In this document: one piece after another, positions 5,348-45,800 of the stretch
How the letters are laid out: each line of letters starts with the position of its first letter
How positions within the stretch are numbered: the stretch's first letter is position 1
NCBI RefSeq assembly: GCF_000142905.1
Contig: NW_013657645.1
Coordinates: 186,001-250,000 of the forward strand
DNA length: 64,000 nucleotides
DNA from: Thecamonas trahens ATCC 50062
Taxonomy: Eukaryota > Protista > Apusomonadida
Direction of reading: 5' to 3'
Made by a program: the position numbers and the translations under genes
Notes under the pieces: generated by a model
What the model saw: the letters and a program-made list of their open reading frames with translations, nothing else
What the model was told of the DNA's origin: nothing
The model's database searches: none

Positions 5348-6190
5348 ATGGTCAACTCGAAGCGCGGACAGGGCAACGCCTCGGATTCACGTCCTTTCAA
5401 GCGCGCGCTTGTGCCGCTCACTCAGGGCGTCGAGGGCTCGATGTACAAGAAGAAGCTAAAGGCGCGCCTCGGAAAGGACTCTGTCCCACTCGCTGCTGCC
5501 CACGCACGTTGCTTGCAACTGGCCAAAGACAACACCGGCTGTGACTGGCCCCTTTCCAAGGGCGCTTTCAAGGACTTTGTGCGCGAGGCCTACAATGGTT
5601 ACAAGGATTTCAGTGGCCTGGAAGAGGCCGTGCTTGCTCTCGAGGTCGGCGTGGTCGACATGCGCGTCCTCGCCTTGAAGATCTGTGACAAGCATCACCG
5701 AGCGACCAGGACCGGCGTTAACAAGGCCGCCAAGAAGCAGGACACTACTCCGAAGAACCTCTCTGCTTTGCGTGCCAAGATCGAGGCCAGCGTCAAGGCC
5801 GATTATGACCAGCGTGACGCCGACGAGTGCGTTGCGCGCCTCAACGCCAAGCATGACGCTCTTGTCGAGCGTTTCCTTGCCGCCATGGGGTTCGCCGACA
5901 TGGACATTGCCGACATGGACATCGCTGTGCCATCCGTCACAGCCGCCCCACCTCCTTGCACCCCACACCCGGCTGCAGCGCCCGCCACCGTCGCAAGCGC
6001 CCCCGCCATCGCTAGCCTGTTGTCCTCCCGTATCAAACCACCCTGCCTCGAATCTCTCCCACCGACGTCCCTCACCGCGTTGATCGCGGTCGGCAGAGCC
6101 AGGGAGCGCCCCCAATGCCTCACAACATCCCCGGCTCACCACCACATCAGCAGCGATAACGGCCATGACTGGGTGAAGCTACCATTTTGA
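5348..6190 (+). CDS. Orphan protein B (basic, helical N-terminal ~190 aa, Pro/Ala-rich tail)
   Basis: ATG 5348 (MVNSKRGQG...), strong coding-type codon usage (AAG, GCC, GAC) and a protein-like helical pattern. No family recognised. Confidence 0.65.
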   Translation: MVNSKRGQGNASDSRPFKRALVPLTQGVEGSMYKKKLKARLGKDSVPLAAAHARCLQLAKDNTGCDWPLSKGAFKDFVREAYNGYKDFSGLEEAVLALEVGVVDMRVLALKICDKHHRATRTGVNKAAKKQDTTPKNLSALRAKIEASVKADYDQRDADECVARLNAKHDALVERFLAAMGFADMDIADMDIAVPSVTAAPPPCTPHPAAAPATVASAPAIASLLSSRIKPPCLESLPPTSLTALIAVGRARERPQCLTTSPAHHHISSDNGHDWVKLPF

Positions 6191-12668: not shown

Positions 12669-13220
12669 ATGCGCTTGGTGGTGATGGTCCTGGTCCTGGG
12701 CCTGGTCCTGAGCCTGGGCCTGCCTGTCAGAGGCCATCCGCCGACGGCTGAAGTTTGCAAGGACTGTGCTCCGTCGTCGGACGGGACAAAGCTTGCATGC
12801 TGTTCCGAGTCGGACGTGCTCATCCGATGCGAGTACTGGGACGACTCGCCGATGTGGGACATCAAATCCGACGGAAACTCTTGCTCGCGCGAGCGAAACT
12901 CACTGGCTGTCGCCGTTATCACTGTCTTTGCTGTCGTTGCATGCGCCGGCATGACGGCTATCACTCTCTGTATCTGCTACATGTGCGACTGCTGCCCGCT
13001 CAAGAAGCGCCGCATCGCCCGAGCCCGCATCTCCTCGCTCTCTCGCACCACCGGCGCAGTCGTTGGATACGATGGTAACGCCCAGGGCATGCACGCGCTG
13101 GGCAACAACTTGCCCACCGCCTCGTCTGTCCGGCCCTCGGTCAACCTCCCGCGCCTGCCTAACGGTCGTCAGCACCCGCGCCCGCTTCCGCCCATCAGCA
13201 AGACCACCGGGCCGCGCTAG
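12669..13220 (+). CDS. Shisa-like/STMC6-type small single-pass membrane protein
   Basis: Signal peptide MRLVVMVLVLGLVLSLGLPVRG; six-Cys ectodomain C-C-CC-C-C; TM followed by CICYMCDCCPLKKRR; Pro-rich tail. Confidence 0.7.
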   Translation: MRLVVMVLVLGLVLSLGLPVRGHPPTAEVCKDCAPSSDGTKLACCSESDVLIRCEYWDDSPMWDIKSDGNSCSRERNSLAVAVITVFAVVACAGMTAITLCICYMCDCCPLKKRRIARARISSLSRTTGAVVGYDGNAQGMHALGNNLPTASSVRPSVNLPRLPNGRQHPRPLPPISKTTGPR

Positions 13221-14452
13221 CTCTCGTCGAGCTTCTGCAGCCAGGCGTCGATCCGCTCCAGAGCATCCAGCCCGGTTGTTGCAATCGAGACAAAACCCCT
13301 GGTATCGTCATCCGAGTCCCGCAGCGGGTACGCCGGGTTGATACGGACTACCTGGACCTGGCCCGGGTTCTGCGCCGCGAGTATCTCGGTCATCCCGCGG
13401 AGCTTGGCCACAGTTATCCCAGCACCGATCTCCAGAATGACAACTTTAGCCGTCTCGGACGTCTCCAGCAAGTCATCAACTGCATCCCACCATGAGTGAT
13501 GGCGCTCGTCCTGCGCCTCGTCATCGAGCCACCCGCGGTCGTCAAACATGCGAATGGCCGGCCGGCCGGCAGCTCCACACTCGGCACACGCCCGCGGCAA
13601 TGAGCTGACGTCGCGGTCGTCGACCTCCCACCTCGCGCCCGCCCCGCCGCACGGCCTCGAGCATTGCCATCGGGTCACTCGGCCGTGCATCTCGCGCAGA
13701 TGGTCGTCGTCAACAACACCAGCCTTAGTAAAGTGGCCATCTACGTTGGTGGTGACCACAAAGAAGGCACCGTGGGATGTGAACCTCTCCTCCCGCCAAC
13801 GCCGCAGAATGTTGTAGCCATTATGCGGCCGCGCCCGCCCGTACTCGATCACAGACTCGCTCCAGAACGCCCAGAACTCGTCAGGCGCCGAGACCATGAC
13901 CGACTCGGAGCAGAGCCTGGCGTACGGCACGCCGGCCTCGACAAGCTCCGTATACGTGGGCAGGCCCGAGTCAGCCGACATGCCTGACCCAGCATGGACC
14001 ACCAACACCGATGCATTGGCCACCATCTGTCCCTCCCGCCCCACCCACACACCCCCAACCATCGGCAGCCGCCTGTGAGTACTCGCTTCTCTTGCCGCCG
14101 TCTCGTGGCGAATCTTCGTGAACCATCCGCATTGCCGGAGCTCGCTGCGCAACGCCAGTCCCGGCCCGGAAGCGCATGATCTCCACAGCGTAGTTCTACG
14201 CGATGGCCTAGTTCGTGTCTATATCATGGTGATGGGCTTAGGCGGGGTGCTGGTTGCACCCCTCCCCCCCTTCTCCACCTGCCCTCACCTCTCGTGTTGC
14301 GAACTCGACTACGCTGATTCTCTTGTGCTCTCGTTCTCAGCTTGCACAATGCTGTGCACTCGTACCTCTGCCGCCTCGCAACACGCATCATCAACATGGG
14401 CGCGGAGTGCAGCTAGTTGTTCTTCACTCGGTATGCTGCATGAGTTTCCCAT
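13217..14452 (-). CDS. Sir2-family NAD-dependent deacylase; join(14366..14452, 13217..14026)
   Basis: AGSGMSADSGLPTY, TTNVDGHF, EMHG, CSRPC/CAEC zinc ligands, RPAIRMF, LEIGAG, INP. Exon 1 MGNSCS...CEAAE splices in phase 0 via GTACGA...ACAG to MVANASVLVVHAG. Confidence 0.88.
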
Positions 14453-14646
14453 GATGGTCGCCGCGGCGCCGATGTCACCAACTCGCGGCTCCCACTCCCG
14501 TCCCGACCCAGTGTCGGAGACGAGTGTGCGCAACAAAGCTTCTCGGCGTCAAAACGGCGCTGCAGTAAGCAAGACAGCTCGCCGTGGCCATCAATGCCTT
14601 GCTACCGCTCGATCACCAGATGAGTCGGTTTGAGTCTCGTCCCAGC

Positions 14647-15597
14647 TCAGACGATAAAGGCTACCCGATGAGCAGTGGCCTCGGCGCGCTCGCCGTCGTT
14701 CTCGAGGTGGCCCGTTCCGCCGGCATCAAGGCGGATGTAGTCGCGTCCACGGCGTGGCGCTGACGGATCGGCCATCACCCGCTCCGAGCACGCTGGACAC
14801 CTTCCGCCGTCGGCGCAAACGAGCCCGAGGCACTCCTTGGCGCACACCACGTGGCCACACATCCGCAGCGCAACAGCCTTGCTCCCGTTGCGGAACGCCG
14901 TCTCACACACCGAGCACGCGTACGACGGCAGGGCGTGCCGCGACTCGCCGCCGGGTGTGCGAACCGGCGCATACTTGAGCGCAACCAACGATGAGAACGT
15001 CAGCTTGTGATCGCTTTCAGGACAAACAACATACGTGCGATCAGCCACCACCACACCCGACTCATCCGCATCAACGTTTGGCGCCATGTTGGGCAGCCAG
15101 TAGCCGCCGACCGAGTCGACCTCTTTCAACGCCGTTCCCTTGGCATTGGGCGCGCTAGCCAGCGACGATGCCGCCACTCCAACCGATGCCGCCACCGCCA
15201 GCGCATCAGTCCTGGCCTCCAACAGCGATCCAGTCGCCGCTGATGACAAGCCGCCGGTCGATGTGCCACCCACACCCGCGCCGGCAGCAGAGACAGCGGC
15301 AGAGCCCGCCGCCGCCTTGGCCGCCGCCTTGGCCGCCGCCTTGGCCGCCTTCTTGGCGCGCTTTGCGGCAGCCTTTGAAGCCTTTTTGGCCTTGGCCTTG
15401 CGAGCGACAAGATACTCGAGAACGCATGCCTTGCAGAACAAATGGCCTTCCTTGCACGCCATGGGCTCGCGAGCAGGAGCCAGACACAGCGCACACTCGT
15501 TGAAGCCACGGAGCGCCTCGCCGGTCAGCCGCCGCCGCTGCTCGCCATACTCGCTCAGGAGCGCCCGCTCCTCCCGTCCGAAGATGATCCTTGCCAT
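14647..15597 (-). CDS. NOSIP: Nitric oxide synthase-interacting protein (NOSIP), split RING/U-box spliceosomal E3
   Basis: YGEQRRRL..F..CALCL..AREP..C.EGHLFCKACVLEY, YWLP, CP.S..KL, C..C...CGHVVC..C..C..C, L..GGTG. Confidence 0.9.
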   Translation of the reverse strand: MARIIFGREERALLSEYGEQRRRLTGEALRGFNECALCLAPAREPMACKEGHLFCKACVLEYLVARKAKAKKASKAAAKRAKKAAKAAAKAAAKAAAGSAAVSAAGAGVGGTSTGGLSSAATGSLLEARTDALAVAASVGVAASSLASAPNAKGTALKEVDSVGGYWLPNMAPNVDADESGVVVADRTYVVCPESDHKLTFSSLVALKYAPVRTPGGESRHALPSYACSVCETAFRNGSKAVALRMCGHVVCAKECLGLVCADGGRCPACSERVMADPSAPRRGRDYIRLDAGGTGHLENDGERAEATAHRVAFIV

Positions 15598-15840
15598 GTC
15601 TCCTCTTTGCCCCGCTGCTGGTTGTGGCGTCGAGTGGTGGTCAATGGCCTTGCCGGTGCTGGCTGCCGAAAGGGGTGGAGGGAGAGAGCCAGGGGGAGGA
15701 TCGGCTGGTGTGGCGGGATCAGGGCGAGATCGGGCAGGGTGGGAGGAGAGGTAGCCGCTTTGGCAACACATGATGCATCAATCGCTTTAAGCTGCCCACC
15801 GTTCCGGCTATTGAGCAGAGGCAATGCGGTACCAAAAACA

Positions 15841-17688
15841 TCAATTCGCCAGCCCATTGTCGGGCGAGGCGTCGTCGGGCGAGGCGTCGTCGAGAGTGCC
15901 GCCATCGTCGAGGTCCTTGCCAGCTCCGTACTTGCGACGGAAGTAGGCCCTGATGCCGAAGCGGAGGGCAAAGAACATAATGATGAGGAAGATGGCAATA
16001 CCGACGAGGCCGAGGATGAGCGCCAGGGCGATGGAGCCCCCAGACGGCGGCGGCGGTGGCGGCGGAATGGGCGCAGCCGCAGGCGGCGGCGGAGGCGGCG
16101 GCGGTGGGAGGGCAAGGTACCCGCTGAGCTGACTCCACACATAGACCTTGTTGAGGCCTTTGGCGCCAATGGCCAGAACCTCGTTGTTGAGCTCGACGTC
16201 GAGACCAAACTCGTCCATGACCGACTGCTGGATAGCTGGATCGTAGCCATCGCCTGAGGCGTTAAAGGTGACGTCGAGGAAGCCCGAGCGGTGGTAGGAG
16301 AAGGCAAAGCTCGACTTGAAGACCTCGCGCTTGATCCAGATGTTGTCCGAGACGCCAACGTTGCGCGTGTAGAGGTAGGTCTGGCCCTTGCCGGTCTCGG
16401 CCTCGACGCCAAACGGCGCGCCGATGGCCATCATCTGCCCGTTGGGCGAGAGCGCCATGTCCTGCCCAAAGTACGAGCCGTCCGTCTTCCACGGCTGCAC
16501 ATACTCGTTGCAGTCTCCAAGGCCCGAGACGTCGTACAGCGCGGCGTTGCCCTCGGCAAAGGTCTGCACCACGCCGCCCGCGGCATCGTAGCGGAAGACC
16601 GTCGAGTCGTTGCGCGGCGCCGAGACGTACCACTCGCCCAAGGCGGCATCCATCATGATAGCCGAGCCATAGTTTTGCGACGCGAGCTTGGCTGTCGGCG
16701 CACGGAGCGGAGCAGCCTCGGTCCATCCCGAGCCAGCCGCGTACGTGTACCGCCGCACCAGAGTCGGCAGCAGCGGCGCGTACAGGTTGCCGACCGAGTC
16801 GCCGTTAGCCTGCACATAAGCCTCGTCGTACGACTTGATCACCACGGTGTTGCCGTCGGGAGAAACGCCAAATGGCTGGCCGGCGTGCGAGTGGAGGAGC
16901 GTCTCGTTGGTGAGTGAGAGCTCCGGCTCGAACGTCTGGATCTTAGCCGAGTACACGTACTCACCCACGCCAGAGTCGTAGTCCCACACGTGTATGCCAC
17001 GGTTGGTCGCGTTGGCGGTGTACGCATCCTTGCAGCTGTTATGCGTCGGTTCGCAGAACAGGTACATCGACATGGCAAAGATGCGCGAGCCGTCGGGAGT
17101 AACAGCGACCTGGAAGCCGAGGTGATCACGCGGCGCCGGATGCGGCAGACGCAGCACCTGGTCCGGCGCCGGCCCGTACTTGGACCCACTGGCATCAGCA
17201 TCATGCCGCGAGAAGACATAGACACAGCCTTCCGAGGTGGCGAAGACCGAGGTGCCCTCGCCGTCGCGATGGGCACCCACCACCAGCCGCGACGCGGTGG
17301 CCGTCATGGCGAGTGAGAAGCCGAATCCGTCCTTCTCCACCGCGCTCGTCGTCAAGTTGCCGATCATCTCCCAACCACCCGTTGCAGCATCCAGCTCGTA
17401 CACCCATGTCCGCCCAGGCATGGCCAGCGTCGCCGCCTCACCCACAGCGAGCACGTTGACATCAGCAGCCAGAGCGAGACCCTTGCCAAACATCCGCGTC
17501 GGGTTCCACTCGGGGAGAGCCCACGGCGAGTCCGGTTGCTCCAACACAGTCGAGGCATCACTTCGCACAGCCTCTCCACCGCTTGCCATGGCCAGCACCA
17601 CCGCAGTCACGGCGAGCAGCAGCAGACCAACAGAGCGAGACGAGGCCGACACACCGCCGGCCGCCCGTCCCCACGCCAGCTTCCGCAT
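15841..17688 (-). CDS. Membrane-anchored FG-GAP beta-propeller (integrin-alpha-head-like, no leg domains)
   Basis: Signal peptide; repeats FGKGLAL..LAVG, FGFSLAM..LVVGAH, LGFQVAV, YGSAIMM..VSAP, FGQDMAL..AIGAP, FGLDVEL..AIGAK; poly-Pro stalk; TM; tail RFGIRAYFRR then an acidic end. Confidence 0.8.
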   Translation of the reverse strand: MRKLAWGRAAGGVSASSRSVGLLLLAVTAVVLAMASGGEAVRSDASTVLEQPDSPWALPEWNPTRMFGKGLALAADVNVLAVGEAATLAMPGRTWVYELDAATGGWEMIGNLTTSAVEKDGFGFSLAMTATASRLVVGAHRDGEGTSVFATSEGCVYVFSRHDADASGSKYGPAPDQVLRLPHPAPRDHLGFQVAVTPDGSRIFAMSMYLFCEPTHNSCKDAYTANATNRGIHVWDYDSGVGEYVYSAKIQTFEPELSLTNETLLHSHAGQPFGVSPDGNTVVIKSYDEAYVQANGDSVGNLYAPLLPTLVRRYTYAAGSGWTEAAPLRAPTAKLASQNYGSAIMMDAALGEWYVSAPRNDSTVFRYDAAGGVVQTFAEGNAALYDVSGLGDCNEYVQPWKTDGSYFGQDMALSPNGQMMAIGAPFGVEAETGKGQTYLYTRNVGVSDNIWIKREVFKSSFAFSYHRSGFLDVTFNASGDGYDPAIQQSVMDEFGLDVELNNEVLAIGAKGLNKVYVWSQLSGYLALPPPPPPPPPAAAPIPPPPPPPSGGSIALALILGLVGIAIFLIIMFFALRFGIRAYFRRKYGAGKDLDDGGTLDDASPDDASPDNGLAN

Positions 17689-18373
17689 GTTGCCATTCCG
17701 GCAGGTACTCGGGACAACACACATCATCTTCCGTCCAAACACAACCGAGGTGTTGATAGTCGGGAGAGAAACGAATGCGTCTCCCGACCTTCCCCTCCTC
17801 TCCCGCCCCCGCCCCCGCCCCACCCCCGCTGCCCTTGCTCCCGTCAAAGACGACATTGATTCGTTGCCGACAAACTGGCTGCCACCAACAATCGATGCCA
17901 ATTGATGACAATACCTTCGGTGTATTATCATTGAGGAACGTTTTGCACGGTCCGGTGTGTGTGCCTCCACGTCAGCAATGGCAGCATGCCGTACGGGATG
18001 CGCTACAGGGGGATACGAGGGTGTACAAGTGCGGGAATGTCACGCAAGGGTATTGGCAAACACTCTGCTTGCTCTTTGACTGGTGGTATATACGTCATAC
18101 ATGGTGTAGCCTTCACTACGGGCATGGAAGCTTGCCCCCCCCCCTGTGCTATCAATATGCTCGCTCACGTTCATTAGTCATCGGGTCGGACTCAGCCGGA
18201 CAATCAAAACGTTGCCAAGACAGAGGGGGAGGGGGGGAGGGGGGAGGCCGGCGGGGGTAGCGGGGAAAGGGCGTGTGGAAGGCATTCGTGTCTCGTTAAC
18301 CTGGATAACTTCGGGTTAGTGACGACTTTCCCTGTGGTTGCTTTGCTCTGTGTTTCTGCGCGTGGCTGCTGTC

Positions 18374-19765
18374 ATGGGTGTGTTCAAGTCCTTGGCCTCG
18401 GTGACGGACGTGGTGGTGGTGGTGGTGGTGGTGAGCCTTGTGTTAGTGACTCTTGCCGGCGAAGCGGATGGACGGACGGTGCTGTTTTCGGCGGTGGTTC
18501 GCGACTTTTCTGTGGATCACACCGACTTTGAACGGTATGGAGGCGGCGGCGTGGACTGCGGAGCTGTGGAGGATGAGCTCGGCGAGGACCGCAAGCCGAT
18601 CATGTGGGGTGGGAAGACGGCGACGGGAAAGTTCCTCGACCGGCCGTGCCCGCAGGCCGGCACCGGACGGCCGCGCCGGGTCGAGTACTTTCAGAACTTC
18701 TTCCGCGACGTGCCGGGCGTCAACATCCGCATTCCCATCCAGCTCAAGTTTGAGGAGCAGCCGCCAGGCTCGGGCATCTTTGTCTTTGATCGTAACAAGG
18801 ACGCTACCGGCATCAACCAGTACTTTCCGGTCGATGGACTCGGCTGGGGCGCCGACGTGCGGCGGCTGGGTTTCTTTGGCAACGTTCGCAACTTTCTCTT
18901 CACCACCGAGATCCACGCCGAGTTTGTGTACCGCGGCGACAACGAGTTCTTTAACTTTGCCGGCGATGACGACGTCTGGGTCTTTGTCAACAACAAGCTG
19001 GTCGTCGACGTCGGTGGCCTGCATTCGCAAAGAACCGGTGCCGTCAACTTGACGAACATTGCCGGCAAGCTCGGTCTTGTGCCTGGCGAGCGGTACCCTG
19101 TGTTTGTGGGCATCGCCGAGCGCCACTCGACCCAGTCCAACTGCCGGATCGAGACGACGCTTGCGCCCATCAACCGGCGGCCGTCAACGCAGCCAGCGGC
19201 GTACTCGGTCAAGGTCGGTGAGAACGTGACGGTCGAGTTTGTGGCGTTTGACGAGGACGGCGACAACCTCGTGTACACCCATACCATTCCGGACGAGCTA
19301 GCGCTGCTGCTGGACATTGCGCCCGACTCGCAGACGGCGCGGTTCCACGCGCCAGACTCGCTCGACCTGTACCTGCCTGCCAACGAGACGTCGTACACGT
19401 TCTCGATGGAGTTCACCGTCTCTGACGGTGAGTACACGGCGTGTCCGTCGACAGTGACCATCACCGTCACGCGAACGCTGGTGGCCCCTAGCCCGCCGGC
19501 TGCGACGCCGGCGCCGACGGACAACACCACCACGGTTGTCATCATCTCGATTGTCGCCGTCCTTGCAGTCATCGGCATCATCGCCCTCATTGCGCTCATC
19601 TTCTACGTCCGCTCGCAGGCCGAAACCTGGAAGGCCGAGATCATGGCCGAGTTTGCGGATGACAACCTCTCGATGAACCCGCTGTACACGGGGGCAAACA
19701 CTGAGTTCTCGTCACCGCTCTACGACGATGGCGGTGGAGACTCGGTCCAGATGTCGCACTTTTGA
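18374..19765 (+). CDS. PA14/fibro-slime domain + Ig/cadherin-like domain + TM + integrin-beta-like NPxY tail
   Basis: RDF..H.DFE, FFRDVPGVN, YFPVDG, NFLFTTEIH..F.Y.G, F.GDDDVWVFVNNKLVVDVGGLH, AERH..SN; AFDEDGDNLVY...FTVSDG; TM; tail NPLY-TGANTEFS-SPLY. Confidence 0.88.
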   Translation: MGVFKSLASVTDVVVVVVVVSLVLVTLAGEADGRTVLFSAVVRDFSVDHTDFERYGGGGVDCGAVEDELGEDRKPIMWGGKTATGKFLDRPCPQAGTGRPRRVEYFQNFFRDVPGVNIRIPIQLKFEEQPPGSGIFVFDRNKDATGINQYFPVDGLGWGADVRRLGFFGNVRNFLFTTEIHAEFVYRGDNEFFNFAGDDDVWVFVNNKLVVDVGGLHSQRTGAVNLTNIAGKLGLVPGERYPVFVGIAERHSTQSNCRIETTLAPINRRPSTQPAAYSVKVGENVTVEFVAFDEDGDNLVYTHTIPDELALLLDIAPDSQTARFHAPDSLDLYLPANETSYTFSMEFTVSDGEYTACPSTVTITVTRTLVAPSPPAATPAPTDNTTTVVIISIVAVLAVIGIIALIALIFYVRSQAETWKAEIMAEFADDNLSMNPLYTGANTEFSSPLYDDGGGDSVQMSHF

Positions 19766-20086
19766 AGTCATTGTTACCTGTTGCATGCAGTGTAGCCTTG
19801 CCCACCTACCTGCCCCTGTTGCCGTCCATGTAGATCGACATGAACTCATCACCCAAGGTCTTCTCTCCGGCTCGACCAACCAAACTGCCCCCTCCCTCCA
19901 AGACAATTAGCCTCAAATCTGTCTGTCCTCTCCTCTGACATACTCTCCCCCGTCAACTCTGGTCTGATCACCCCGGCTCCCCTCCACCTCACCGTGCGTC
20001 GCTCCGTGCCAGCCAAAGCCCCCCCCTCCCCCTCCGAACCACCTCCGCCAACCACCACCACTTGACCCCCCCCCACCCCCCACCCC

Positions 20087-20130
20087 ACCCACACCCACAC
20101 CCACACCCACACCCACACCCACACCCACAC
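20087..20130. repeat. (CCACAC)n microsatellite upstream of the SAM-PH gene
   Basis: Visible hexamer repeat. Confidence 0.85.
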
Positions 20131-20169
20131 ACTACATACACAACCAAGAAGCGCATCCAGGAGGCAAAC

Positions 20170-21375
20170 ATGGCATTCCGGTTGTGGAGTGCAGAAGAGG
20201 TCGGAGCATGGCTGGAGAGCCTTGGCTATGGCGAGTATGGTCAGGCGTTTGTGGAGAACGAGGTTGACGGCGAGGCTCTCGAGGGGCTAGACACAGAGAT
20301 GCTGAAGGAGATGGGTCTGGTCAAGGTTGGTCCGAGGGCAAAGGTGCTCCGTGCTGTGCGTGAGCTTGTGGCGGAGGCTGCAGAGGCTGCCGGTCAGCAA
20401 CAGACTGCTGCCGCTGCTAGGCTTGCCGGGGACAGACACGGCAGCCATGGAGGAGATGACGGTGAGGATGGGGTCGTCAGAGCCGCAGCGAGTGAGGATG
20501 TCGGCGGAAAGAAGAAGGGCAAGGCGAAGAAGGGCAAGGACAAGAGCAAGAGCAAGAGCAAGGGCAAGGGCAAGAGTGAGGCTGTCGACCAGAGTGCTGC
20601 GGCGGTGGCCATCGTCGAGGCCGCCAACGGGACGGCGTCGGCCATCTCGAAGCAGGGCTGGCTGACCAAGGAGGGCGGCAAGCGAAAGAACTGGAAGCAG
20701 CGGTGGTTCACCCTCGAAAACATGGTGCTCTCGTACTACAAGGCCGAAGCCGACGTCGGCGTCAAGAACCCTCTGGGACGGATCCCGATTCCGTCGTACG
20801 AGGTCGATCTCGACAACAAGAAGCCATTTGGCTTCAAGATCTCGCACCCCGGATGCCGGACATACTACTTTGGGGCCGAGTCTGAAGCCGAGCGGCAGCT
20901 GTGGATGAAGGCCATCCGTGAGCAGGGTCTGGCCACGGCGTCCAAGACCTGGTTCAACGCCGAGGCCAACTTCTTTTCGGTCGAATACGCGCCGTCACTG
21001 GATCTTTTCGAAGTTGCCATGACAATGGATGCGCCCGAAGAGTCGGTGCGCCTGGTGCCGGGCAAGACGTACCGGTACCATGCCAAGCTGCGGCGGTCGG
21101 ACGGGTACTCGGAGGTGCTACTCGACGCCACCAAGACCGGCATTGTGGTCCGCGACGTGACCGCCACCGACAAGCTCTCGACCCACCACTACACAGCACT
21201 CCAGCGCTACACCATTGCCGCCCACGATCCGGTCTTCTCCATTCTCGAGGTTAAGGCCGGCCTCAAGTCTGTTTTCTCCTTCCACATGGGCAACTTTGCC
21301 ATTGCCCGCCACCTCAACTCGGTCGTCACCGCCCACATCGGCGAGCTTGTCGGCGTCATCCGCTCCATGCGATGA
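20170..21375 (+). CDS. SAM + PH + C-terminal PTB/FERM-F3-like adaptor protein
   Basis: SAM: WSAEEVGAWLESLGYGEYGQAFVENEVDGEAL. PH: KQGWLTKEGGKRKNWKQRWF..YYK...WMKAI. C-terminal LLDATKTGIVVRD...TALQRY...helix, resembling talin F3. Confidence 0.85.
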   Translation: MAFRLWSAEEVGAWLESLGYGEYGQAFVENEVDGEALEGLDTEMLKEMGLVKVGPRAKVLRAVRELVAEAAEAAGQQQTAAAARLAGDRHGSHGGDDGEDGVVRAAASEDVGGKKKGKAKKGKDKSKSKSKGKGKSEAVDQSAAAVAIVEAANGTASAISKQGWLTKEGGKRKNWKQRWFTLENMVLSYYKAEADVGVKNPLGRIPIPSYEVDLDNKKPFGFKISHPGCRTYYFGAESEAERQLWMKAIREQGLATASKTWFNAEANFFSVEYAPSLDLFEVAMTMDAPEESVRLVPGKTYRYHAKLRRSDGYSEVLLDATKTGIVVRDVTATDKLSTHHYTALQRYTIAAHDPVFSILEVKAGLKSVFSFHMGNFAIARHLNSVVTAHIGELVGVIRSMR

Positions 21376-21536
21376 AGCCCGCAGCGCCAGCTACCGAGGG
21401 CCGCCACGTCTGCGTCTTCGAAGCCGCCCGACCGGCCATGCGCCCAACCAAGCAAGGGCGATCGAACAGGCCCCAGAGTGAACACGGGCCGGAGGTCGAG
21501 GCGATGAGTGCAGAGACGGGACGAGTGGGCAAGCGA

Positions 21537-21636
21537 GAGTGATCGAGTGCAGCCAATGAGCGTGAGTGATCGAGTGCAGCCAATGAGCAAGAGTGATCGA
21601 GTGCAGCCAATGAGCTAGAGTGATCGAGTGCCGCCA
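21537..21636 (+). promoter_or_regulatory. 27-bp tandem repeat (~3.7 copies) carrying three CCAAT boxes upstream of UPRT
   Basis: Unit GAGTGATCGAGTGCAGCCAATGAGCNN at 21537, 21564, 21591 and 21618 (partial); the UPRT ATG is at 21710. Confidence 0.7.
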
Positions 21637-21709: not shown

Positions 21710-23028
21710 ATGGCATCGGAGGCGGCATCGAGCGCAAGTGTGACAGATGCAGTGGCGGTAGCCTCTCCTGACTCTCTGCTTGGACTTGATGAGTGTGAGG
21801 TTGTGGACGACGAGACATGGGTATGTGTAGGGACAGGGGGGAGGGAAGGGAAGGGGGGGGGGAGGGGAGGTGGCGGGGATGGAGGGAGGAGGGGGACAGT
21901 NNNNNNNNNNNNNNNNNNNNNNNNNNNNNNNNNNNNNNNNNNNNNNNNNNNNNNNNNNNNNNNNNNNNNNNNNNNNNNNNNNNNNNNNNNNNNNNNNNNN
22001 TCTGTCCCGCGCGTTCCTTGGCACGTGTAGGCCCAGATTGGGGGGAAGGATACCATTTTGAGCGGATTGCCGGGATGAGGAGAGGGGGACACGGTGACAT
22101 GGTCAGTGGAGGGGCGGGGGGGATGGGGAGGGGGGAGGGGGGAGGGAAGGGAAATTGATGGGACAGGAAAGGGGGAGGGGGGGGGGGAGGGGGGAGGGGG
22201 GAAGAGGGTTGCACTGGTGGGGGGAGGCCGGAGGGAAGGGGAGGTGTCGGGGGCATGGCTCGCTGGAGCGCGACTCATTGGCGGCCGTGACGATGGTTGA
22301 CGATGGATGCGATGGATATGATGGTGGGTGTGATGGATGCGGTGGTGGATGTGGGGTTGGTGGGCGGAGAACGGGTGCAGGCCACTGTCCTGCCGCACAT
22401 CCACGTGCTGAGGTCGACGAACCAGATCAAGGGCATGTTCACCATCATCCGTAACCGAGAGACGGTCCGGTCGGACTTTGTCTTTACCTGCGACCGGCTG
22501 ACCCGGCTGGTAGTCGAGTTTGCGCTGTCGTTGCTTCCGTATGAATCCAAGACAGTGATCACGCCGACCGGCGACGAGTTTGTCGGCCTCTCGTGGGCGT
22601 CGTCGATCTGCGGCGTGGCGGTCATCCGGTCCGGCGAGTCGATGGAAGACGCTCTGCGGTCGGTCTGCGGGCCGGTTCGCATTGGCAAGATCCTGATCCA
22701 GAAGAACACCGAGGAGAACTCGCGCGACCTGATCTACGCGCGGCTCCCGGAGGACGTCTCGTCGCGCAAGGTCCTGCTCATGGATCCGGTTGCCTCATCG
22801 GGCCGCACCATCATCCGCGCCATGAAGGTTCTTCTCAAGTCGGGCGTGCCTGAGGAGAACGTCATCCTGGTTACTCTCGTTGCCTCGCGCCGCGCCGTCT
22901 GCTCCATCCTCGCCGCCTTCCCGGGCCTCACCATCTGTGTCGGCGAGGTCGATGAGGCCGTCAAGGGTGACTACGTCGTTCCTGGTCTCGGCACCTTTGG
23001 CGACCGCTACTACGGCACGGACATATGA
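21710..23028 (+). CDS. UPRT: Uracil phosphoribosyltransferase family; join(21710..21820, 22381..23028)
   Basis: TIIR...DFVF..DRL.RLVVE, ICGV.VIRSGESME, RIGKILIQ, LLMDP..SSG, YVVPGLGTFGDRYYGT. GTATGT...GCAG intron in phase 0 spans the gap. Confidence 0.9.
21901..22000. other. Assembly gap (100 N) inside the UPRT intron
   Basis: N run in a G-rich intron. Confidence 1.
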
Positions 23029-23039
23029 ATGAACGCGAT

Positions 23040-26000
23040 TTACTCCGACTGTGCGCTGCTTGCTCCGGCCGAGGCTGAGAGCAGCCGCTTCACGTCATGC
23101 GAGACAAAGAGCGACGAGAGCCGCGCCAGCCGGCCTTGCATGCCATCGAGCCGGTTGCGGCGGACGGTCTGCGCCTCAACCTCGAGCTGCCGCTCAACAA
23201 CGGAGAGCCGCACAGCGCTGGCCGCTGCAGCCGCCACAGGCGGAAACTCGACCTTGAGCAGCGCTTTGGACGGGATGGGCAGGCCGACGTCAACGTCACT
23301 CACTGCAGCTGCTGCCTCGCGGTCGAGATCCGCGGCCGAGAACATGCCAGCCTCGCCGCGCGATTCGCCGCAGCTGTGGCTGCCGGGCCCGGAGCGCTCG
23401 CCGAGGTCCGTAGCTGAGACCAGCGGCGGTGGCGGCGAAGGAACGGCAAACGGTGCACCCGTTCGCGGCACAAGGTGTTGGGACGGCTTGGAAAAGGCTT
23501 TGGCGTGCGCGAGCGACGCCTCGATGCGGTTGCGCGAGGCGGCAAGGCCTCCGGCGTCAAGCGCCCGCGGCCGGAAAAGGTGCGCGTCGTCGACCTCCGA
23601 GTAGGGAACGAGCGGAACGCAGCTCGGAAGTTGCGGCGCGGGATTGAAGATGTGTAGCTCTGGCAGAAGCGGCGGTGCGCGAAGGACCGCCGGAAGCGGC
23701 TCGGGCAGGGCCGGCGCAACAGTGTCCGACTCGCGCCAAACGCGGCCAGCGTCAGCCGAGCGCACGACTGCATCAGCCGGTACCGACCGCGAGATGTCCT
23801 CTTCTTCGGCGCCTGTCCGCAGTTCGCGTTCCTCCTCAAACGGCACCCAGACCGAGTGCTGCGGCAGCGGATACGGCCGGTAGTGGTTGACCTCGACGTA
23901 GACATGGGCCTGCAGCTTGTGCGGCTGCAGATCGAGTGCATGGCGCATGGTGGTGACCGGTAGGGGTGCGAGGTCGACACCGTCGGCGCCGCGCCCGCCC
24001 AGCAGGGCGGCATCTTCACCAAGCACAACGGAAGGACGTCGACAAGAACCTGGGAGGCGCGAGCTGTCAGCGGCAGCGTCTCGGCCTTTTGCTGATGGGC
24101 GACGAGCGCAGCCTCTTGCTGGCGCTTCTCGTCCTGGACAATAGCAGCGATCTTGTCTTTGTCAAAGCCGACGACAGTGAGAAAGGCGCGAATCTTGGCC
24201 AGCCGCTTGTTGGCGCGCGCTCGGACAATGAGCGTTCGCACCACGTCACGGAGGCGGGTGAGTGCGCGGACACGGCGCTCCCACTCGACTGACATGAGCG
24301 CATCAAACTTGGGATTCCGCACCGCAAACGGGAGGCCGGCCTGAGTTAGCGTGGGCCGCTCCGACGACGACCAAGGGATACGGGCCGCGAGCGCGCGCTC
24401 GGTCTCCACATCAGCTACCTGTTCGTCGTGGGCGTCCCGGAGCTCCACAATGCGCGCGAGTTCGGCGTCTGATGGCAGGTTTGCGCCACGGGCAACCGAG
24501 AGTTTGAGCTCGTTGGCGCGGCGGATGGCGGCTTGCTCGGTAAGCACTTCGGAGAAAGCATACTCCTTGACCTGGCGCGACTCAAAGGGGTCGGCAAAGA
24601 GCTCGTCGAGCGACGACTTGAACTGCGAGGCCCGCGCCTGTGCCTCATGTTTCTCCGCGATGGCAGTGCGAAGAGTCTTAGAGCGCGAGCGGCCACGTCC
24701 ACGCTGGGCGAGGATAGCTACCACATTGCCGTGCGACGAGAGACGCTCCAGCTCTTCGGCATCGCTGGTGTGCACAGCAATGGGTCCGCGAGCGCGCCCG
24801 GGTTCGCTCCCGCTTCCAGCTGGCTCATGACTCCGCGGATCAACACCGGCAGCACGCAGTGTCCGCCTCCGCATTGAGGCCTTGCGCTGAAGCTTTCGGG
24901 TGTACGGGTCACCGTGGCCGGCGCCGCCGCCCGAGTGGACAATCTTGACGTTGGTATCGTACGAGTCGACAGCTTGGGTAACAACTACTGCGGCGCCGCC
25001 GTAGGTCACCCGCTTGAGATCCTCGGCAAGGACCGCGGTCCGCTCCTCGGCAGCAGCGTTCATGCGGCGAACGAGCGCGTCGCGCAGAAGGCCTGGCTGC
25101 GACGAGCCGGCCAATGAGCAGCGGCGCGGCTCAAAGTTGAACTGCGAGACGTTGAGCTCAAGTTGCGCCGACGCAGTCACGTACTCGAGCGGAGTGTATG
25201 TGATGGTGACGGTGACAGAGCCCTCTGCAGGGATGACTCCGCTGGCCGGCGAGACATCAAAGCATGGCGAGAGCGGGACGCCGCCAGCCGGCGTAATGGC
25301 GTAGTCAAACTCGATCGGCACGTCGGTGGCAAGCTGGAACGAGCGCGACGCGTGATTGCCGAGCTCAACAATGCCAAAGTCGACAACCTTGGGAAACTCG
25401 ACTTTGGCCACCACTGGGTAGCCGTGGATGGGGACAAGGAGGTTGGCGCCAGGGCAGTGAAGCCGGATGCAGTCGTAGTAGTAGCGCAACTCGGTCGGCT
25501 GGAACGAGACCCTGAGCTTGAGTGCCATGCCAGGAGCGATGAACGGCGCCTTCTTGACGTAAGTCAGCGAAAAGTACGCAGACTGCGGCGGGACGATGTG
25601 CAGCCGCTGCGGAACTGACGATGTGTTGACCACCGCCACCACAAGGCTATGCGAGTTGTTTGGTGTAAAGCCGCCAAAATGGACTGTGGCGGGACGGACC
25701 ACAAACGCCTCATTGCCTCCCGTCTGCTGATAGACTTCTGCAGTGTGTGAACAGGAGGGAGGCCGAGATCGGTGCGATGATGACCAGCATGAGGGGATGA
25801 CCAAGTTGATCGGGACATACACGCACGCATACACACGCATACACACACACGCATACACACACACGCATACACACACATACACGCATACACACACGCATAC
25901 ACACACATACACACACATACACTTGTGAGGACACATCGACCATCATGTCGCCCTCCTGACCACAGCCACCACCAGAGCCACCACCACAGCCACTACAGCC

Positions 26001-34871: not shown

Positions 34872-37800
34872 TTACACCAGTGCACGACCAATGTGATCAA
34901 CAACATCGACGACTCGAACAGAACCGTCTGATGCCCCGATCCAAAGCATATGGTCGTCGGGAGTCGGGGCCTGGACCACAACAGTAGGGACTATATGGTC
35001 ACCAACATCGAGAAGAGTGCAAAGGAGTCGCCCGGTCTTGGTATCCCACGCTCGAACAGTGCCGTCGGTCGAGGCTGTGACTACTGTGGCGGTGGCGGTG
35101 AGGGCGACGATAGCGGTGAGGGCGGCAGCGTGTGCATCGATGAGCAGTCGGACCCGCGGCGTGTGGCCGAGCAGATCCCAGACATGTACGATGCCGCGGA
35201 GAGGAGCGGCATCGGTGCCCTGGCTCGCAGCGACGGCGGCTGGGGTTGGCATCGGCGTTGCCGGCGAGAGCGCAGGATGAAGGTGCCACGGGGTATCCAG
35301 AGGTGTGGCAGACCACGGTGAGTGTCTCGCATGAGCTGCCGATGCAGTCTCTGAGAACGCTTTCTCGGGTGAGTAGGCGTACGAGAGCGACGACTCGTCG
35401 AGCACTCCGCCGCGCTCCGCCAGAAGTTCATCATGCAACAGCTGGTTGAGAACAGAGACGCCAACTGCAACGCTAATAGCGCCACCGGCTTGATCAAGCA
35501 GCGGGGCAGCCGGAAACGCGTCAGGGCTTGGTTGGGCATACACCACCCAGTTGACGCACCAGTCTTCAAACAGCAGATCAACAATAGGGCCAGCCAGCGT
35601 CGCCTCGGACCACGCCACGCGGAGCCCGACGAGGCGGCCGAGCCGAGGAAGCCAAACAAGGACCAAGTGCACGTTGGCTTCCCACGGCGCGAGCGGAACA
35701 GATCGAATCCGTCCGTTGAGTGCTCCTGAAGGCGTCGGGATGGGATACACAAGCTCTGCTGTCGACGAATCGAGGGGGCACCGCCATCCCGCCAGCGTAC
35801 CATCACCAGCAAGGGCGTAGACCACACCGTCAGGTCCGGGACAAACATCGACCACCGCACCGGCCGAGTCGGGAAGCCAGAGGCCACGTACAAGAGCCAG
35901 TGACGAGAGCGACCAGACCTTGACCGAGTCCTCGCTGACGCCAAACGAGATTGCAGCCTCGGTGTCAGACTGCAAGGCGAGGAGGTGAAAGGCGGCGACG
36001 CCATGTGGATGGGCATCCTCGATGACAAACAGTGGGTTACGTGGATGGAGAAGGATGTGCCGTCCTGACAGTTCCGGGTTACCCTGCGAGCTGGCGAGAA
36101 CAACAGGCGTAGAAGCGCGCGACGTGGTACCCGGGAGCGAGAGTGACGAGAGCGAGACGAGAGCAACCATGTTGCGGACCCGCGGAGCGCCGATGCGAAG
36201 CGAGTGCAGTTGCGATGCCGACTCTGCGTCCAACCGGTTGCCCAACGTCGGCGCAAGGTGCCAGACCATGACTGAGCCGTCGGCTGCCAGCGTCGCAACC
36301 ACTCGACTGGCGCCGCATGTAAGCGAGACAATACCGCTGACAAGGGTGAGGTGCTTGGTGGGAAGGGCGGGCGCTGGATCACCAACCTGAGCAGGAAGAT
36401 GGATCGCAAGCGAGTCGACAGTGATGGCGTCGTGGTCGACGAGCGCAGCGGCGACGAGCGCGTGGGTGCCGGCAGCGGCAGCGGCAGCGGCATCCTCAAG
36501 CAGCGCAAGCGCGTCTGAAGCTGAGATCCGATGCTGCGGATCGACCGCCAGCGCCGAGAGAACTAGCGTTCGTAGCGGCGTTGGCCACCATGTTTGGTGC
36601 CGCGGACGCAACCAGCGATTCTCTGGATCACGCCATGACACCAGCGGCAAGCCTGCCAGCACTTCATGGGCGAGGAGGCCAAATGCGTACATGTCAGCAG
36701 CCGCAGTCCGCGCGAGACCTTCAGGAGGCGCATAAGCTTGCGGCTCCACGAGTGTTGCCCACTTGTCACGTCCGACCCGGGATTCGAGCGCGGCCGCCAG
36801 ATCGAGTTCGAGCTCGAGACTTGTTTCTGGCCCCGAGAACTCAGCAGCCGCTTCGGGCGTTGTAGCCGTGACAAGACCTGCATGGACGTGAGTAAGATGG
36901 GCAGCGACGGTCTCGGGGCTTGAAATAAGCGCTGGTGGAACGACCAGGCGGAAGATCCAGCCGTCGCCACGGGGGGATGCCCAGACCATCGACGGGCAGA
37001 TGGCGCCATGGACGGCTCCAAGAGCATGCACTGTCTTGAGCGCAGATGCTAGGTCATGCAGCGCAGCGATGCGAGCAGAGAGGGTGGAGAGTGCACCGCT
37101 CGCCATTGACAGTGCAAGCGGCCGGTCGTCGGGCATGTGGTCGTACCAGACCCAGGCAAGTGAGCGCGGCTGATGCGGAAGCAAGTGAGCAAGGCCAACA
37201 CCCATGTCGGGTGATTCTGCCACGTGTGAGACGGCGACGAGCGGAACAATGTGTGGCGATGCCAGCGAAATGATGTCGGCCAAAGGGTGGAGTTGAGTCG
37301 AGTCCGACTGCGGTGGTAGGTCGAGGCCGGCAACCAGAAAGCCCTTGGCGTGGAGGGTGGTGGCGAGTCTGACGGCTGCAAACGGAATTGAGGCGAGCGA
37401 GCGGGCGAGCGGAAGTGTGGTCGGTGCAGCCATGTCAGCATCTGTGACGAGAAGCGGAACCAAAATGCGGGTAAGCGTCTGCTGGAGCACATCAGGTTGT
37501 GACGAGGCAAGAAGAGCCGGATCAAACGGAGGGAAACGATCCGGATACATGGGTGGAACCGCGATAGCCTGCGTAGGTGAGAGCCGCTCCGCAGCGCCGA
37601 GCGAGGCGAGAAAGGCAAGCGGGAGAGTGGACCAGGCAACGCCAAGGCCCTGATGACCAACAGCTAGGACATGGCTACTTCCGAGAAGGTAGAGCGAGGT
37701 GAGTGGCGCCGGGAGTGCGGGGAAGGCGTAGATCTGAGTTCCAGACTCAGGCTGCCACACCCGCAGCGTACCGTCGGCGCCAGCTGAGAAGACAAGGCCA

Positions 37801-42817: not shown

Positions 42818-45800
42818 ATGGAAGGTACCGTAGGAGGCGACGACGACGCGCGCTGCACGCCCGCAGGTGGAGACGCCGCACGTCCCACCGAGGAGCTCCT
42901 GGCGATCATGCGCACGCTGGCGGCAGCCGTCGTTCGTATGGCGGGCCACCCCGTCGACGCTGTCGAGCGCGCACTCGGCACACTCGCCCATGCAAGGGGC
43001 GAAGCATTTGTGGCAAGCCTTTGTGAGCCACTGGCGGCTCTTGTTGCTGAGTTAGCCGCACCCGAGGCGTCTGGGAGCGGGGACAACAACTGCCGCCATG
43101 CGGTTTTTGGCGAAAGCGGCGAATGCGGCGAAAGCACCGCTGCCACGGGTGATAGCAGCAACGATGACGGCGAGTTGAGCTTCCATGATCCGCTGGCGGC
43201 GCTCCTTGCCGAGCTTGGGGACGACGAGGAAGAAGGTGACCGCGGGGCGGTTACGGCTGACGAGGCTGGGGCTGTGGTTGAGGCCGAGGCCGGGGCTGAG
43301 GTTGATGAGGTGGAGGTGGAGGTGGAGGTCGAGGCCGAGGCTGGGGCTGAGGCGGATGCAGGTGAGACTGGAGCCGAGACCGAGGCTGAAGTGGAGGCCG
43401 AGGTGGAGGTGGAGGTCGAGGCCGAGGCCGAGGCTGGGGCTGAGGCGGATGCAGGTGAGACTGGAGCCGAGACCGAGGCTGGGGCTGAGGCTGATGCAGG
43501 TGAGACTGAAGGCGAGGCCAAGGCTGAAATGGAGGCCGAGGCCGGAGCTGATGTTGATAAGGTCGAGGTGGAGGTCGAGGCCGAGGTCGAGGCTGGGGCC
43601 GAGGCTGATGCGGTTGAGACTGGAGCCGAGACCGAGGCTGAAATGGTAGCCGAGGCCGGGGCTGAAGTGGAGGCCGAGGTCGAGGTTGAGGCCGAGGCTG
43701 GGGCCGAGGCTGATGCGGTTGAGACTGGAGTCGAGACCGAGGCTGGGGCTGAGGCCGATGCAGGTGAGACTGAAGGCGAGGCCAAGGCTGAAATGGAGGC
43801 CGAGGCCGGAGCTGATGTTGATAAGGTCGAGGTCGAGGTCGAGGCCGAGGCCGAGGCTGGGGCCGAGACTGATGCGGTTGAGACTGGAGCCGAGACCGAG
43901 GCTGAAGTGGAGGCCGAGGTGGAGGTGGAGGTGGAGGTCGAGGCCGAGGCCGAGGCTGGGGCTGAGGCGGATGCAGGTGAGACTGAAGGCGAGGCCGAGG
44001 CTGAAATGGAGGCCGAGGCCGGAGCTGATGTTGATAAGGTCGAGGTCGAGGCCGAGGCTGGAGCCGAGGTTGATGAGGTCGAGGCCGAGGTCGAGGTTCA
44101 GGCCGAGGCTGGAGCCGAGGCTGATGCGGTTGAGACTGGAGCCGAGGCCGAGGCTAAAGTGGAGACCGAGTTTGTCGTTGAAGATCAGGCTGAGACTCAG
44201 GCCAAGACTGAGATCAGAGTGGAAGCTGTGGGGCCACCTGCTGATGGCGAGTCGGTCAACCACGAGGCCGAGAGCGGCGCTGGGGATGCGAGTGCTTCTG
44301 CTGCCCTTGCAGCCGGCGTGGTGGCTACCGGCACAGCAGTGGGTCTCGCTGTAGCCGCAACCAGCCAAGTTGAGCCTCACTACGACGGTGAAGTGTGTGA
44401 TGCGGCCGACGGAGGGGAGACCGAGGGCGAGACCGAGGGCGAGACCGAGGGCGAGACCGAGGAAATGAGGTATCGCCCAGCTTCGCCGTGGACTGAGTCG
44501 ATCCTATCGGACTACTCTGATGATCTCGAGCTGGAAGTTGTGGAGGTCGAGCAGCACGGCAACGATGTGGCGCGATCATACACGACGCTCATGGAGATCG
44601 ACGACGCCTTGAACGCCAGGCTTGACACCGAAGACGACATTGATCCTGCCACGCTCATCTCTGAGTGCAGCGGCGTCCACTCATCCGACGACTCTGACTC
44701 GGCCGACCTCGAAGTTTTTGCCACGTTTGCGCTCGAGGATGAGATCGGCGTCCTGCCGTTGGAGCAGCACCGCCGCCGATCGTCAGGCCTGAGCGACTCG
44801 CTAGCTGACGCTGCCAAAGCTGTTGCGTCCGCAGCTGTTGATCCTGTTTCGGATGAAACAGTTGCCGTCGACAACAACGACAACAACACAGGCCAGGCGC
44901 CAAAGACTGCCGCCGAGAAGAGGGAGGTCGTTGAGGATGCCTCGGCTGATGGTGGCTCTAGCCCTGGTGCTGACGCGCCGTCCAGCAACGAACTGGAGCT
45001 CAAGTCTGGCTACATGTCGAAGCGCGGTGGCAAGTTCTCCACCAAGTGGCAGAAGCGCTGGTTCTCGCTCACCGCCGAAGAGTTGATGTACTCGGAAGCA
45101 CCCGACAAGCCGCTCAAGGGCTCGATTGCTATTTCGCGGATCAACCTCGTTACCCAGGTCCACTCACCCAAGCAGGTCAAGGAGCGCCAGCACTGCTTCT
45201 CGGTTGCCGTGCCCGGCAAGACGTACTACATTGACGCCGGCTCCGAGAGTGAGCTCGTGGCCTGGCTCCAGGCTCTCTACCCGCTGCTGGGGCCCACCAT
45301 TGTCGTCGCCGACTGTGTCGGCGACAGCGACGATGCATCGCCACAGGCCTTGCTCCCGGACTCGCCAGGCAAGGACAGCAGCGCTCCTGCCACCCGTCGC
45401 CGCCCGGACAGCCTCGACGACACCACGGTACTCATGTCTGGGTATCTTGTTAAGCGATCGGCGAGCGGTGGGAAGCTGCAGTCGCGGTTTATGACGCTCA
45501 CGCCCAGATTCCTTCGCTATGCGGTCAAGGAGGGCAAGCCAATCAAGTCGGCACTTGCCACCGCCGTCATGATCTGCACGAGGCGTAATGCTGCGGCCGA
45601 AAAGCCGCCGTATGGCTTCAAGATCGCCACCGCAGCGCATGTCGTCTCGCTTTATGCGCCTGACGAGGACACGCTGATCAAGTGGCTCATGGCGCTCGAG
45701 CGTGCCATCGGCGTTCCGGCACCGCCGAGCGATCCGCTTGAGTGCTACACCATCTGGCGCAAGGCCTTTGAGTGCGAGAACCTCGCAACCATGTGCGCAT

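Follow-up and report, generated by a model that had tools for sequence, protein, structure and literature searches.

The three genes considered here lie side by side in a stretch of 64,000 nucleotides from the apusomonad Thecamonas trahens ATCC 50062 (contig NW_013657645.1, positions 186,001 to 250,000), hereafter the window, in whose coordinates all positions are given. Gene 1 (15841..17688, minus strand) is intronless and encodes 615 residues that comprise a signal peptide, an FG-GAP_2 propeller, a poly-proline stalk, a membrane helix and a short tail. Gene 2 (18374..19765, plus strand), also intronless, encodes 463 residues with a signal peptide, a fibro-slime/PA14 domain, a cadherin-like Ig domain, a proline-rich linker, a membrane helix and a cytoplasmic tail. 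Gene 3 (20170..21375, plus strand; NCBI AMSG_07642) yields 401 residues when read straight through, with SAM, PH and C-terminal domains; the NCBI model of 371 residues is explained by an annotated in-frame intron of 90 nucleotides with GT..AG ends (20393..20482). An earlier interpretation made from the letters of the DNA (the sequence-only reading) described the trio as an integrin-like heterodimer with its own adaptor. All three genes are real and adjacent, and the signal-like N-termini and single C-terminal membrane helices that it assigned to genes 1 and 2 are present. The first two genes diverge, with 685 base pairs (about 690 in that reading) between their start codons (17689..18373), and this spacer likely holds a shared promoter. 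We propose, with a probability of roughly 0.45, that genes 1 and 2 encode a putative heterodimer, a remodelled integrin-like receptor.

The integrin-type part of gene 2 is its inner end. The membrane helix (19535..19609) is a run of 25 uncharged residues in all four relatives and is followed by a tail of 51 residues (19610..19762) that carries NPLY at 19676-19687 and SPLY at 19712-19723. When gene 2 alone was compared with the PDB, the transmembrane segment and tail of integrin beta-3 ranked second of four matches (expectation value, E=0.55), and a six-row profile of the family placed the beta-3 helix and tail first of eight (E=0.0047), with four further beta-3 or beta-1 entries among the other matches. 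The beta-3 alignment stays in register and free of gaps between the first cytoplasmic residue and the second motif, and the distance from the first cytoplasmic arginine to the first NPxY is 22 residues in all four relatives, the same as in beta-3. The family tails read NPLY-x8-SPLY (gene 2), NPLY-x8-NPLY (two proteins) and NPLY-x8-NLIY. A doubled motif at the exact spacing arose in 10-22 of 200,000 shuffles for each of the four tails (about 1e-4), and it was found in none of 277 other fetched proteins. The Pfam family Integrin_b_cyt matches the tail below the cut-off (E=0.032). Given the leading beta-3 match, the conserved motif and the shuffles, sequence comparison gives strong support to the claim that a PA14 head is here combined with a beta-integrin-type tail.

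The proximal NPxY of SibA is reported to bind talin A (PMC9197732), and binding of talin at the proximal NPLY of gene 2 is predicted with good confidence. The NPxY signature is a general PTB-binding motif and a lectin head might suit cargo uptake, which would fit an uptake receptor that uses these motifs as sorting or endocytic signals and not as a talin anchor. We consider such a function very improbable because the beta-3 match runs in integrin register over the helix, the spacer of 22 residues and the two motifs, and because DAB and NUMB, clathrin adaptors of the PTB type, are reported to have arisen in metazoans (PMC4824007).

The outer part of gene 2 is of a different kind. The head matches the fibro-slime family TIGR02148 (E=1e-29, 102.6 bits against a cut-off of 45) and Pfam PA14 (E=7e-7), and is followed by a cadherin-like/Big_9 Ig stalk domain and the proline-rich linker, so that the PA14/fibro-slime, Ig-like and transmembrane domains of the sequence-only reading are all borne out. 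The vWA/beta-I head of integrins, with its MIDAS (the adhesion site dependent on a metal ion), the adjacent site (ADMIDAS) and the synergistic metal-binding site (SyMBS), is absent according to the Pfam and TIGR02148 assignments, and in place of the PSI domain and the cysteine-rich EGF stalk there are one Ig domain and the linker. Since the vWA head is missing, gene 2 is not a member of the integrin beta family, nor of the Sib family. The GDDD motif G197-D200 (18962..18973, plus strand) is a candidate DcisD calcium/glycan site and is nearly invariant across 114 fibro-slime rows, including the acidic run D198-D200. Paired aspartates are reported to hold calcium in sugar-binding PA14 domains (PMC6218569, PMC3325183); with D198-D200 taken as their equivalent, calcium-dependent glycan binding by the gene 2 head is predicted and appears likely.

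The combination of this head with such a tail is rare among the relatives listed. A homolog search with gene 2 retrieved 226 proteins among 7,993 candidates, and 120 of them, including the query, were listed; only P0004 (52%) and P0005 (39%) among the 119 listed relatives extend beyond the head with a membrane helix and an NPxY tail. In a tree of 113 of the 114 fibro-slime rows (the fragment P0128 was dropped), the relatives with a transmembrane tail and the members of their clusters form one clade with support of 0.977. Other arrangements also occur in the family: P0006 and P0094 have two tandem heads, and P0110 joins a fibro-slime head to precomputed PF00200 and PF20597 domains.

Gene 1 matches a single Pfam family, FG-GAP_2 (PF14312; E=2e-10, two stretches). 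An AlphaFold2 model built from four rows has seven four-stranded blades (16117..17571, residues ~40-524), a disordered proline-rich stalk and a helix at residues 550-586 (mean predicted local distance difference test score, pLDDT, 64; predicted template modelling score, pTM, 0.68), and a structure search (VIA) gave Z of ~28 to seven-bladed propellers. The "six to seven FG-GAP repeats" proposed earlier are accordingly seven blades in the model and need correction as to their type: they are of the FG-GAP_2 type, and a motif scan found the integrin calcium loops in none of the 5 orthologs. Ig-like leg domains are absent from all 5 orthologs, and the thigh and calf legs are replaced by a poly-proline stalk (16045..16107) of 29-36 residues with 14-17 prolines. 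The stalk leads to the membrane helix (15964..16032) and to the juxtamembrane sequence RFG-IRA-YFRRKY (15928..15963), which resembles KxGFFKR with a 3-residue insert; the stalk, helix and IRAYFRR had been read correctly. In all 5 orthologs the conserved core of the helix sits 22 residues ahead of the first basic residue.

A six-row profile of gene 1 compared with the PDB placed integrin alpha-E first and second (E=0.014 and 0.028) and alpha-5 fourth (E=0.25) of eight matches, in each case by the propeller blades; a four-row full-length profile found no integrin in the PDB search. HMMER aligned a third stretch, the gene 1 tail, with KxGFFKRKY of alpha-E, again with the 3-residue insert, at a non-significant -2 bits. 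The exact KxGFFKR is missing from gene 1, and the pattern [GA][FY][FY][KR][KR] is present in 3 of the 5 orthologs. Besides gene 1 itself, these are P0123 and P0124 (~50%), P0132 (a EukProt transcript) and P0134 (38-39%), of which P0132 and P0134 came to light when 1.84 billion representatives were scanned in full. Three of the best 150 matches considered from that scan are full-length; the other 147 consist of several short stretches, and 7 of these were checked, each of which proved to be an FG-GAP_2 protein with many repeats. In the Foldseek search with the gene 1 model, integrin alpha-M came at rank 7; it was not counted, as nothing sets it apart from the WD40 propellers.

An alpha-like identity of gene 1 is thus moderately supported: the seven-bladed propeller stands, whereas the calcium loops and legs are absent. 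In the minimal definition that Kang et al. describe for non-metazoan alpha chains, a membrane-docked protein with several FG-GAP propeller blades suffices, and canonical alpha chains are described there as having cation-binding loops in the last 3-4 blades (bioRxiv 10.1101/2020.04.29.069435). Gene 1 fits the minimal definition and is not a canonical alpha chain. Neither gene 1 nor gene 2, then, is a canonical integrin.

Integrin alpha and beta genes lie head-to-head in Capsaspora and Corallochytrium (PMC5560861), and by analogy with this layout, together with RNA cover of both genes, the pairing of genes 1 and 2 gains real support. Four of 20 listed RNA runs were compared; the runs were selected because they contain this stretch, and their contigs give neither level nor strand. 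All four runs, from 3 studies, contain near-identical contigs for both genes (with partial cover in X9). These contigs extend over 15794-17787 on gene 1 and 18295-19857 on gene 2 and are colinear with the DNA, which indicates that both genes lack introns. A 320-nucleotide joint at 19174-19495 was rejected as a repeat artefact on account of its non-canonical ends and a side of only 22 letters. Toward the spacer the contigs end at 17756-17787 on the gene 1 side and at 18295-18327 on the gene 2 side, and 17788-18294 is without cover in all four runs. Gene 3 and the neighbouring genes for a NOSIP-like protein and a uracil phosphoribosyltransferase have short RNA pieces only. As contigs can show neither absence nor level, we take missing cover neither for nor against co-regulation.

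Divergent orientation as such is common in the window, where 5 of the 18 neighbour pairs in the list of open reading frames are head-to-head, 3 of these 5 with gaps of 660-792 base pairs; the count rests on that list, from which intron-rich genes are possibly absent. The layout alone therefore means little, and it is the identity of the paired genes that counts. A chance estimate that assumes 10-30 genes for FG-GAP membrane proteins and 30-100 for receptors with a double NPxY among the genes of T. trahens, which we take to number ~10,000, gives, as a rough inference, 0.01-0.15 expected head-to-head pairs per genome, which is low and yet not negligible after a wide scan. The length and register of the membrane helix are fixed in both families. 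The stalks (16045-16107 and 19484-19534) vary by ~7 residues across relatives, and one relative per family has a longer form.

Apart from the frequency of divergent pairs, several observations weigh against a heterodimer. WD40 propellers lead the structure-search rankings of gene 1, ahead of integrins, and among the best 150 matches the propeller is closest, beyond its three full-length relatives, to giant multi-repeat FG-GAP_2 proteins and not to integrins. Two of the 5 orthologs, the most distant ones, have lost both the acidic end and the likeness to GFFKR (KFAVQRFMRKR, RWAIRRWIVRR); what is left of the motif there is a pair of hydrophobic residues with basic residues behind it. When three of the gene 1 tails were combined into a profile, its 5 PDB matches at E<=10 included no integrin alpha. 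In the AlphaFold2 model the juxtamembrane segment is a single unbroken helix, unlike the alpha tails of integrins, which are reported to reverse their backbone at this segment (PMC3771934). In gene 2 the HDRxE motif that contacts the alpha chain is replaced by RSQ (gene 2 itself) or RSR in 4 of 4 relatives; the HDR motif is described as pairing with the alpha chain through beta-3 Asp723 and alpha-IIb Arg995 (PMC3771934). Among 154 FG-GAP proteins, 119 fibro-slime proteins and 25 loci, the two heads were found neither fused nor as neighbours. The beta-type tail is reported to work without an alpha partner in SibA (PMC9197732, PMC9453864), and integrin-like tails are reported on lectins of Entamoeba and Acanthamoeba (PMC12686525).

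Many of these points would be explained if gene 2 were a stand-alone, SibA-like, talin-coupled lectin and gene 1 an unrelated or only loosely associated propeller protein with an extensin-like stalk, the two being adjacent by chance. The decay of the alpha-tail likeness in gene 1 and the failure of the tail profile to find an integrin alpha, the missing HDR motif, the existence of monomeric beta-tailed receptors and the abundance of divergent pairs in the window all fit this explanation; moreover, amoebozoan alpha-like proteins with proline-rich extensin stalks are reported, many of them in species without a beta chain. Against it speak the presence of one particular alpha-like gene in exactly the orientation that is reported for integrin pairs of protists, the small size and similar restriction of both families, and the cover of both genes by the same four RNA runs. 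We regard a stand-alone gene 2 as a serious possibility, albeit a rather doubtful one.

A profile-profile comparison of the gene 1 and gene 2 families showed no homology. Alignments of gene 1 had no match in metagenome, viral or prokaryotic contigs, and the gene 2 alignment had none in viral contigs, all of these being collections poor in protist DNA. A gene 2 relative matched the 25 loci mentioned above by its fibro-slime head only, with a gene 1 relative near none of them; little protist DNA is covered there. A search at the level of titles and abstracts found no published description of such a pair, although gene 1 may be among the alpha paralogs in the supplementary integrin lists of Kang et al. 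The 22 of 23 'fibro-slime' papers that were listed are, by title, all on bacteria or microbiomes.

Among known systems, the integrin pairs of Capsaspora and Corallochytrium (PMC5560861) share with this locus a divergent arrangement of two genes, one for an FG-GAP propeller protein of the membrane and the other for a protein with a beta-type helix and double NPxY tail. In contrast to those pairs, the genes described here lack the beta-I/vWA domain, MIDAS, PSI domain, EGF stalk and HDR motif as well as the alpha calcium loops and legs, the chains have 615 and 463 residues, and their pairing is a prediction. SibA-E and the Entamoeba and Acanthamoeba lectins are likewise described as single-pass proteins with a non-canonical ectodomain and an NPxY tail (PMC9197732, PMC9453864, PMC12686525). 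SibA, however, is described with a vWA domain, for which Pfam gives no match in gene 2, and the accounts cited report no alpha-like partner for these proteins, whereas gene 2 adjoins an alpha-like gene. Gene 1 resembles the 'Type II' alpha proteins reported from amoebozoans (bioRxiv 10.1101/2020.04.29.069435) in having a signal peptide, propeller, proline-rich stalk and helix; these are described as carrying 1-5 cation motifs, mostly without GFFKR, whereas gene 1 has no cation motif. The screen of Kang et al. is described as using PF01839, whereas gene 1 matches PF14312. PA14 families are reported to be large in dictyostelids and Physarum (PMC4931340).

The fibro-slime/PA14 lectins, such as PsiA and DicA1 of Dictyostelium, Flo/Epa of yeasts and TraA of myxobacteria, have the same head family and the acidic DD motif but differ from gene 2 in that the helix and NPxY tail are restricted to the two listed relatives named above. 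A membrane helix together with two NPLY-like motifs may also form the C-terminal end of some Dictyostelium Psi proteins, in which case the plan of gene 2 would be older and less new. In Mastigamoeba, a PA14 gene adjoins an integrin beta gene. Gene 2 is thus integrin beta- or SibA-like on the inside and PA14-lectin-like on the outside, and the nearest relatives of both heads, of gene 1 and of gene 2, are bacterial-type. The pair may have arisen from an integrin pair with its outer parts replaced or by parallel assembly from such heads.

In the sequence-only reading, gene 3 was a SAM-PH protein with a PTB/F3 domain that served the pair as a kindlin-like adaptor. The SAM (residues 5-66) and PH (160-251) domains are firm by Pfam and PDB relatives, whereas the C-terminal domain (~258-401) is PH/PTB-like only weakly: over its 144 residues, the IRS-type PTB match (E=0.0042, 17.5 bits) falls below the cut-off of 22. 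In the Atlas, each of the ten rows shown is a cluster; most belong to the PH-like clan (syntrophin PH 0.87, IRS PTB 0.82), and every score is under 0.9. A single-sequence model has beta strands and a terminal helix at pLDDT 43, and Foldseek with this model gave no match at E<=0.001. The PDB sequence search gave 2 weak, unrelated matches, and a search for relatives of the domain returned, among 211 candidates, one match, the protein itself. A PH-like fold of this region is plausible, and a PTB function is hypothetical.

The comparison with kindlin fails. Pfam finds no FERM domain in gene 3, and the PH domain precedes the candidate PTB-like domain and is not inserted within it. Dok/IRS adaptors have the order PH then PTB, and gene 3, which adds a SAM domain and has a weak PTB match, is Dok-like rather than kindlin-like. 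Kindlin is described as a derivative of the talin head with a PH domain inserted in the FERM (F2), found only in metazoans (PMC4325847). Gene 3 might still be the adaptor of the pair, with its PH domain on the membrane and the PTB-like domain reading NPxY in the manner of Dok1, which is reported to bind the proximal NxxY of beta tails (PMC4479986). The PTB score, the Atlas rows and the strands and C-terminal helix of the model are compatible with such a role. It is nevertheless improbable, given the PTB match below the cut-off, Atlas values that are a lead only, the low pLDDT, the lack of relatives of the domain and of a FERM domain, and the frequency of PH proteins, of which the window holds another with four PH domains (42818-47206, plus strand; an open reading frame of 1462 residues). 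Gene 3 is probably a bystander and not a dedicated part of the pair, adjacency being the sole link. Behind gene 3, at 21532-21636, there is a 27-base-pair tandem repeat with 3.9 copies and 93% matches.

If genes 1 and 2 do form the proposed pair, they would be transcribed from the shared divergent promoter and encode two receptor halves. The PA14 head would bind a surface glycan via calcium held by the DD motif and so replace the beta-I/MIDAS head, and the propeller and the two membrane helices would pair side by side, with the short proline-rich stalks holding them at similar height. The proximal NPLY would bind talin F3 and couple the cell surface to actin, in the service of adhesion or of capturing prey. 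As hinged legs, calcium loops and the HDR salt-bridge motif are all missing, the pair would serve as a short, static tether and not as a switch between bent and extended states.

The surroundings of the trio are of other kinds. The flanking genes at 13217-15597 (minus strand) and 22303-23028 (plus strand) are housekeeping genes, encoding a Sir2-like protein, a NOSIP-like RING protein and a uracil phosphoribosyltransferase, and Pfam searches of the neighbours revealed no wider adhesion cluster. The GC content at third codon positions of the three genes (0.77-0.81) lies inside the range of eight neighbours compared (0.71-0.83) and thus gives no sign of foreign origin. Elsewhere in the window, ~12690-13220 (plus strand) encodes a small protein that crosses the membrane once, with an outer part rich in cysteine, a cysteine cluster past the helix and no family match. 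A HYDIN/CFAP65-type Ig-domain gene (23040-25936, minus strand) has overlapping frames (23040-23948 and 23300-25936) that point to an intron or a frameshift. An open reading frame of 1831 residues at 34872-40367 (minus strand; gene model provisional) unusually combines CAP-Gly, a protein kinase and WD40 propellers. One of 1327 residues (49559-53542, plus strand) has a single EGF-like match, and one of 280 residues (5348-6190, plus strand) has no Pfam match.

T. trahens is reported to have an integrin adhesion complex (bioRxiv 10.1101/2020.04.29.069435). At the probability given at the outset, genes 1 and 2 would represent a second, remodelled integrin in the apusomonad lineage, with a lectin-headed beta chain, proline stalks for legs, and integrin-type helices and tails kept. 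Two questions described as open in the field are what integrins bound before the animal extracellular matrix existed and whether the dimer or the talin-binding tail came first (PMC12686525, bioRxiv 10.1101/2020.04.29.069435). With its lectin head, a small pair without introns points to a candidate class of ligand, namely glycans on prey or substrate. Both questions would thereby become open to test: the ectodomains have ~490 and ~340 residues, the tail has 51, and the organism is in culture. Even without a dimer, gene 2 contributes an obazoan case of a lectin joined to an integrin-beta tail. If the pairing is true, a sugar-reading, talin-coupled heterodimer would mean that the propeller-plus-partner design needs no vWA domain.

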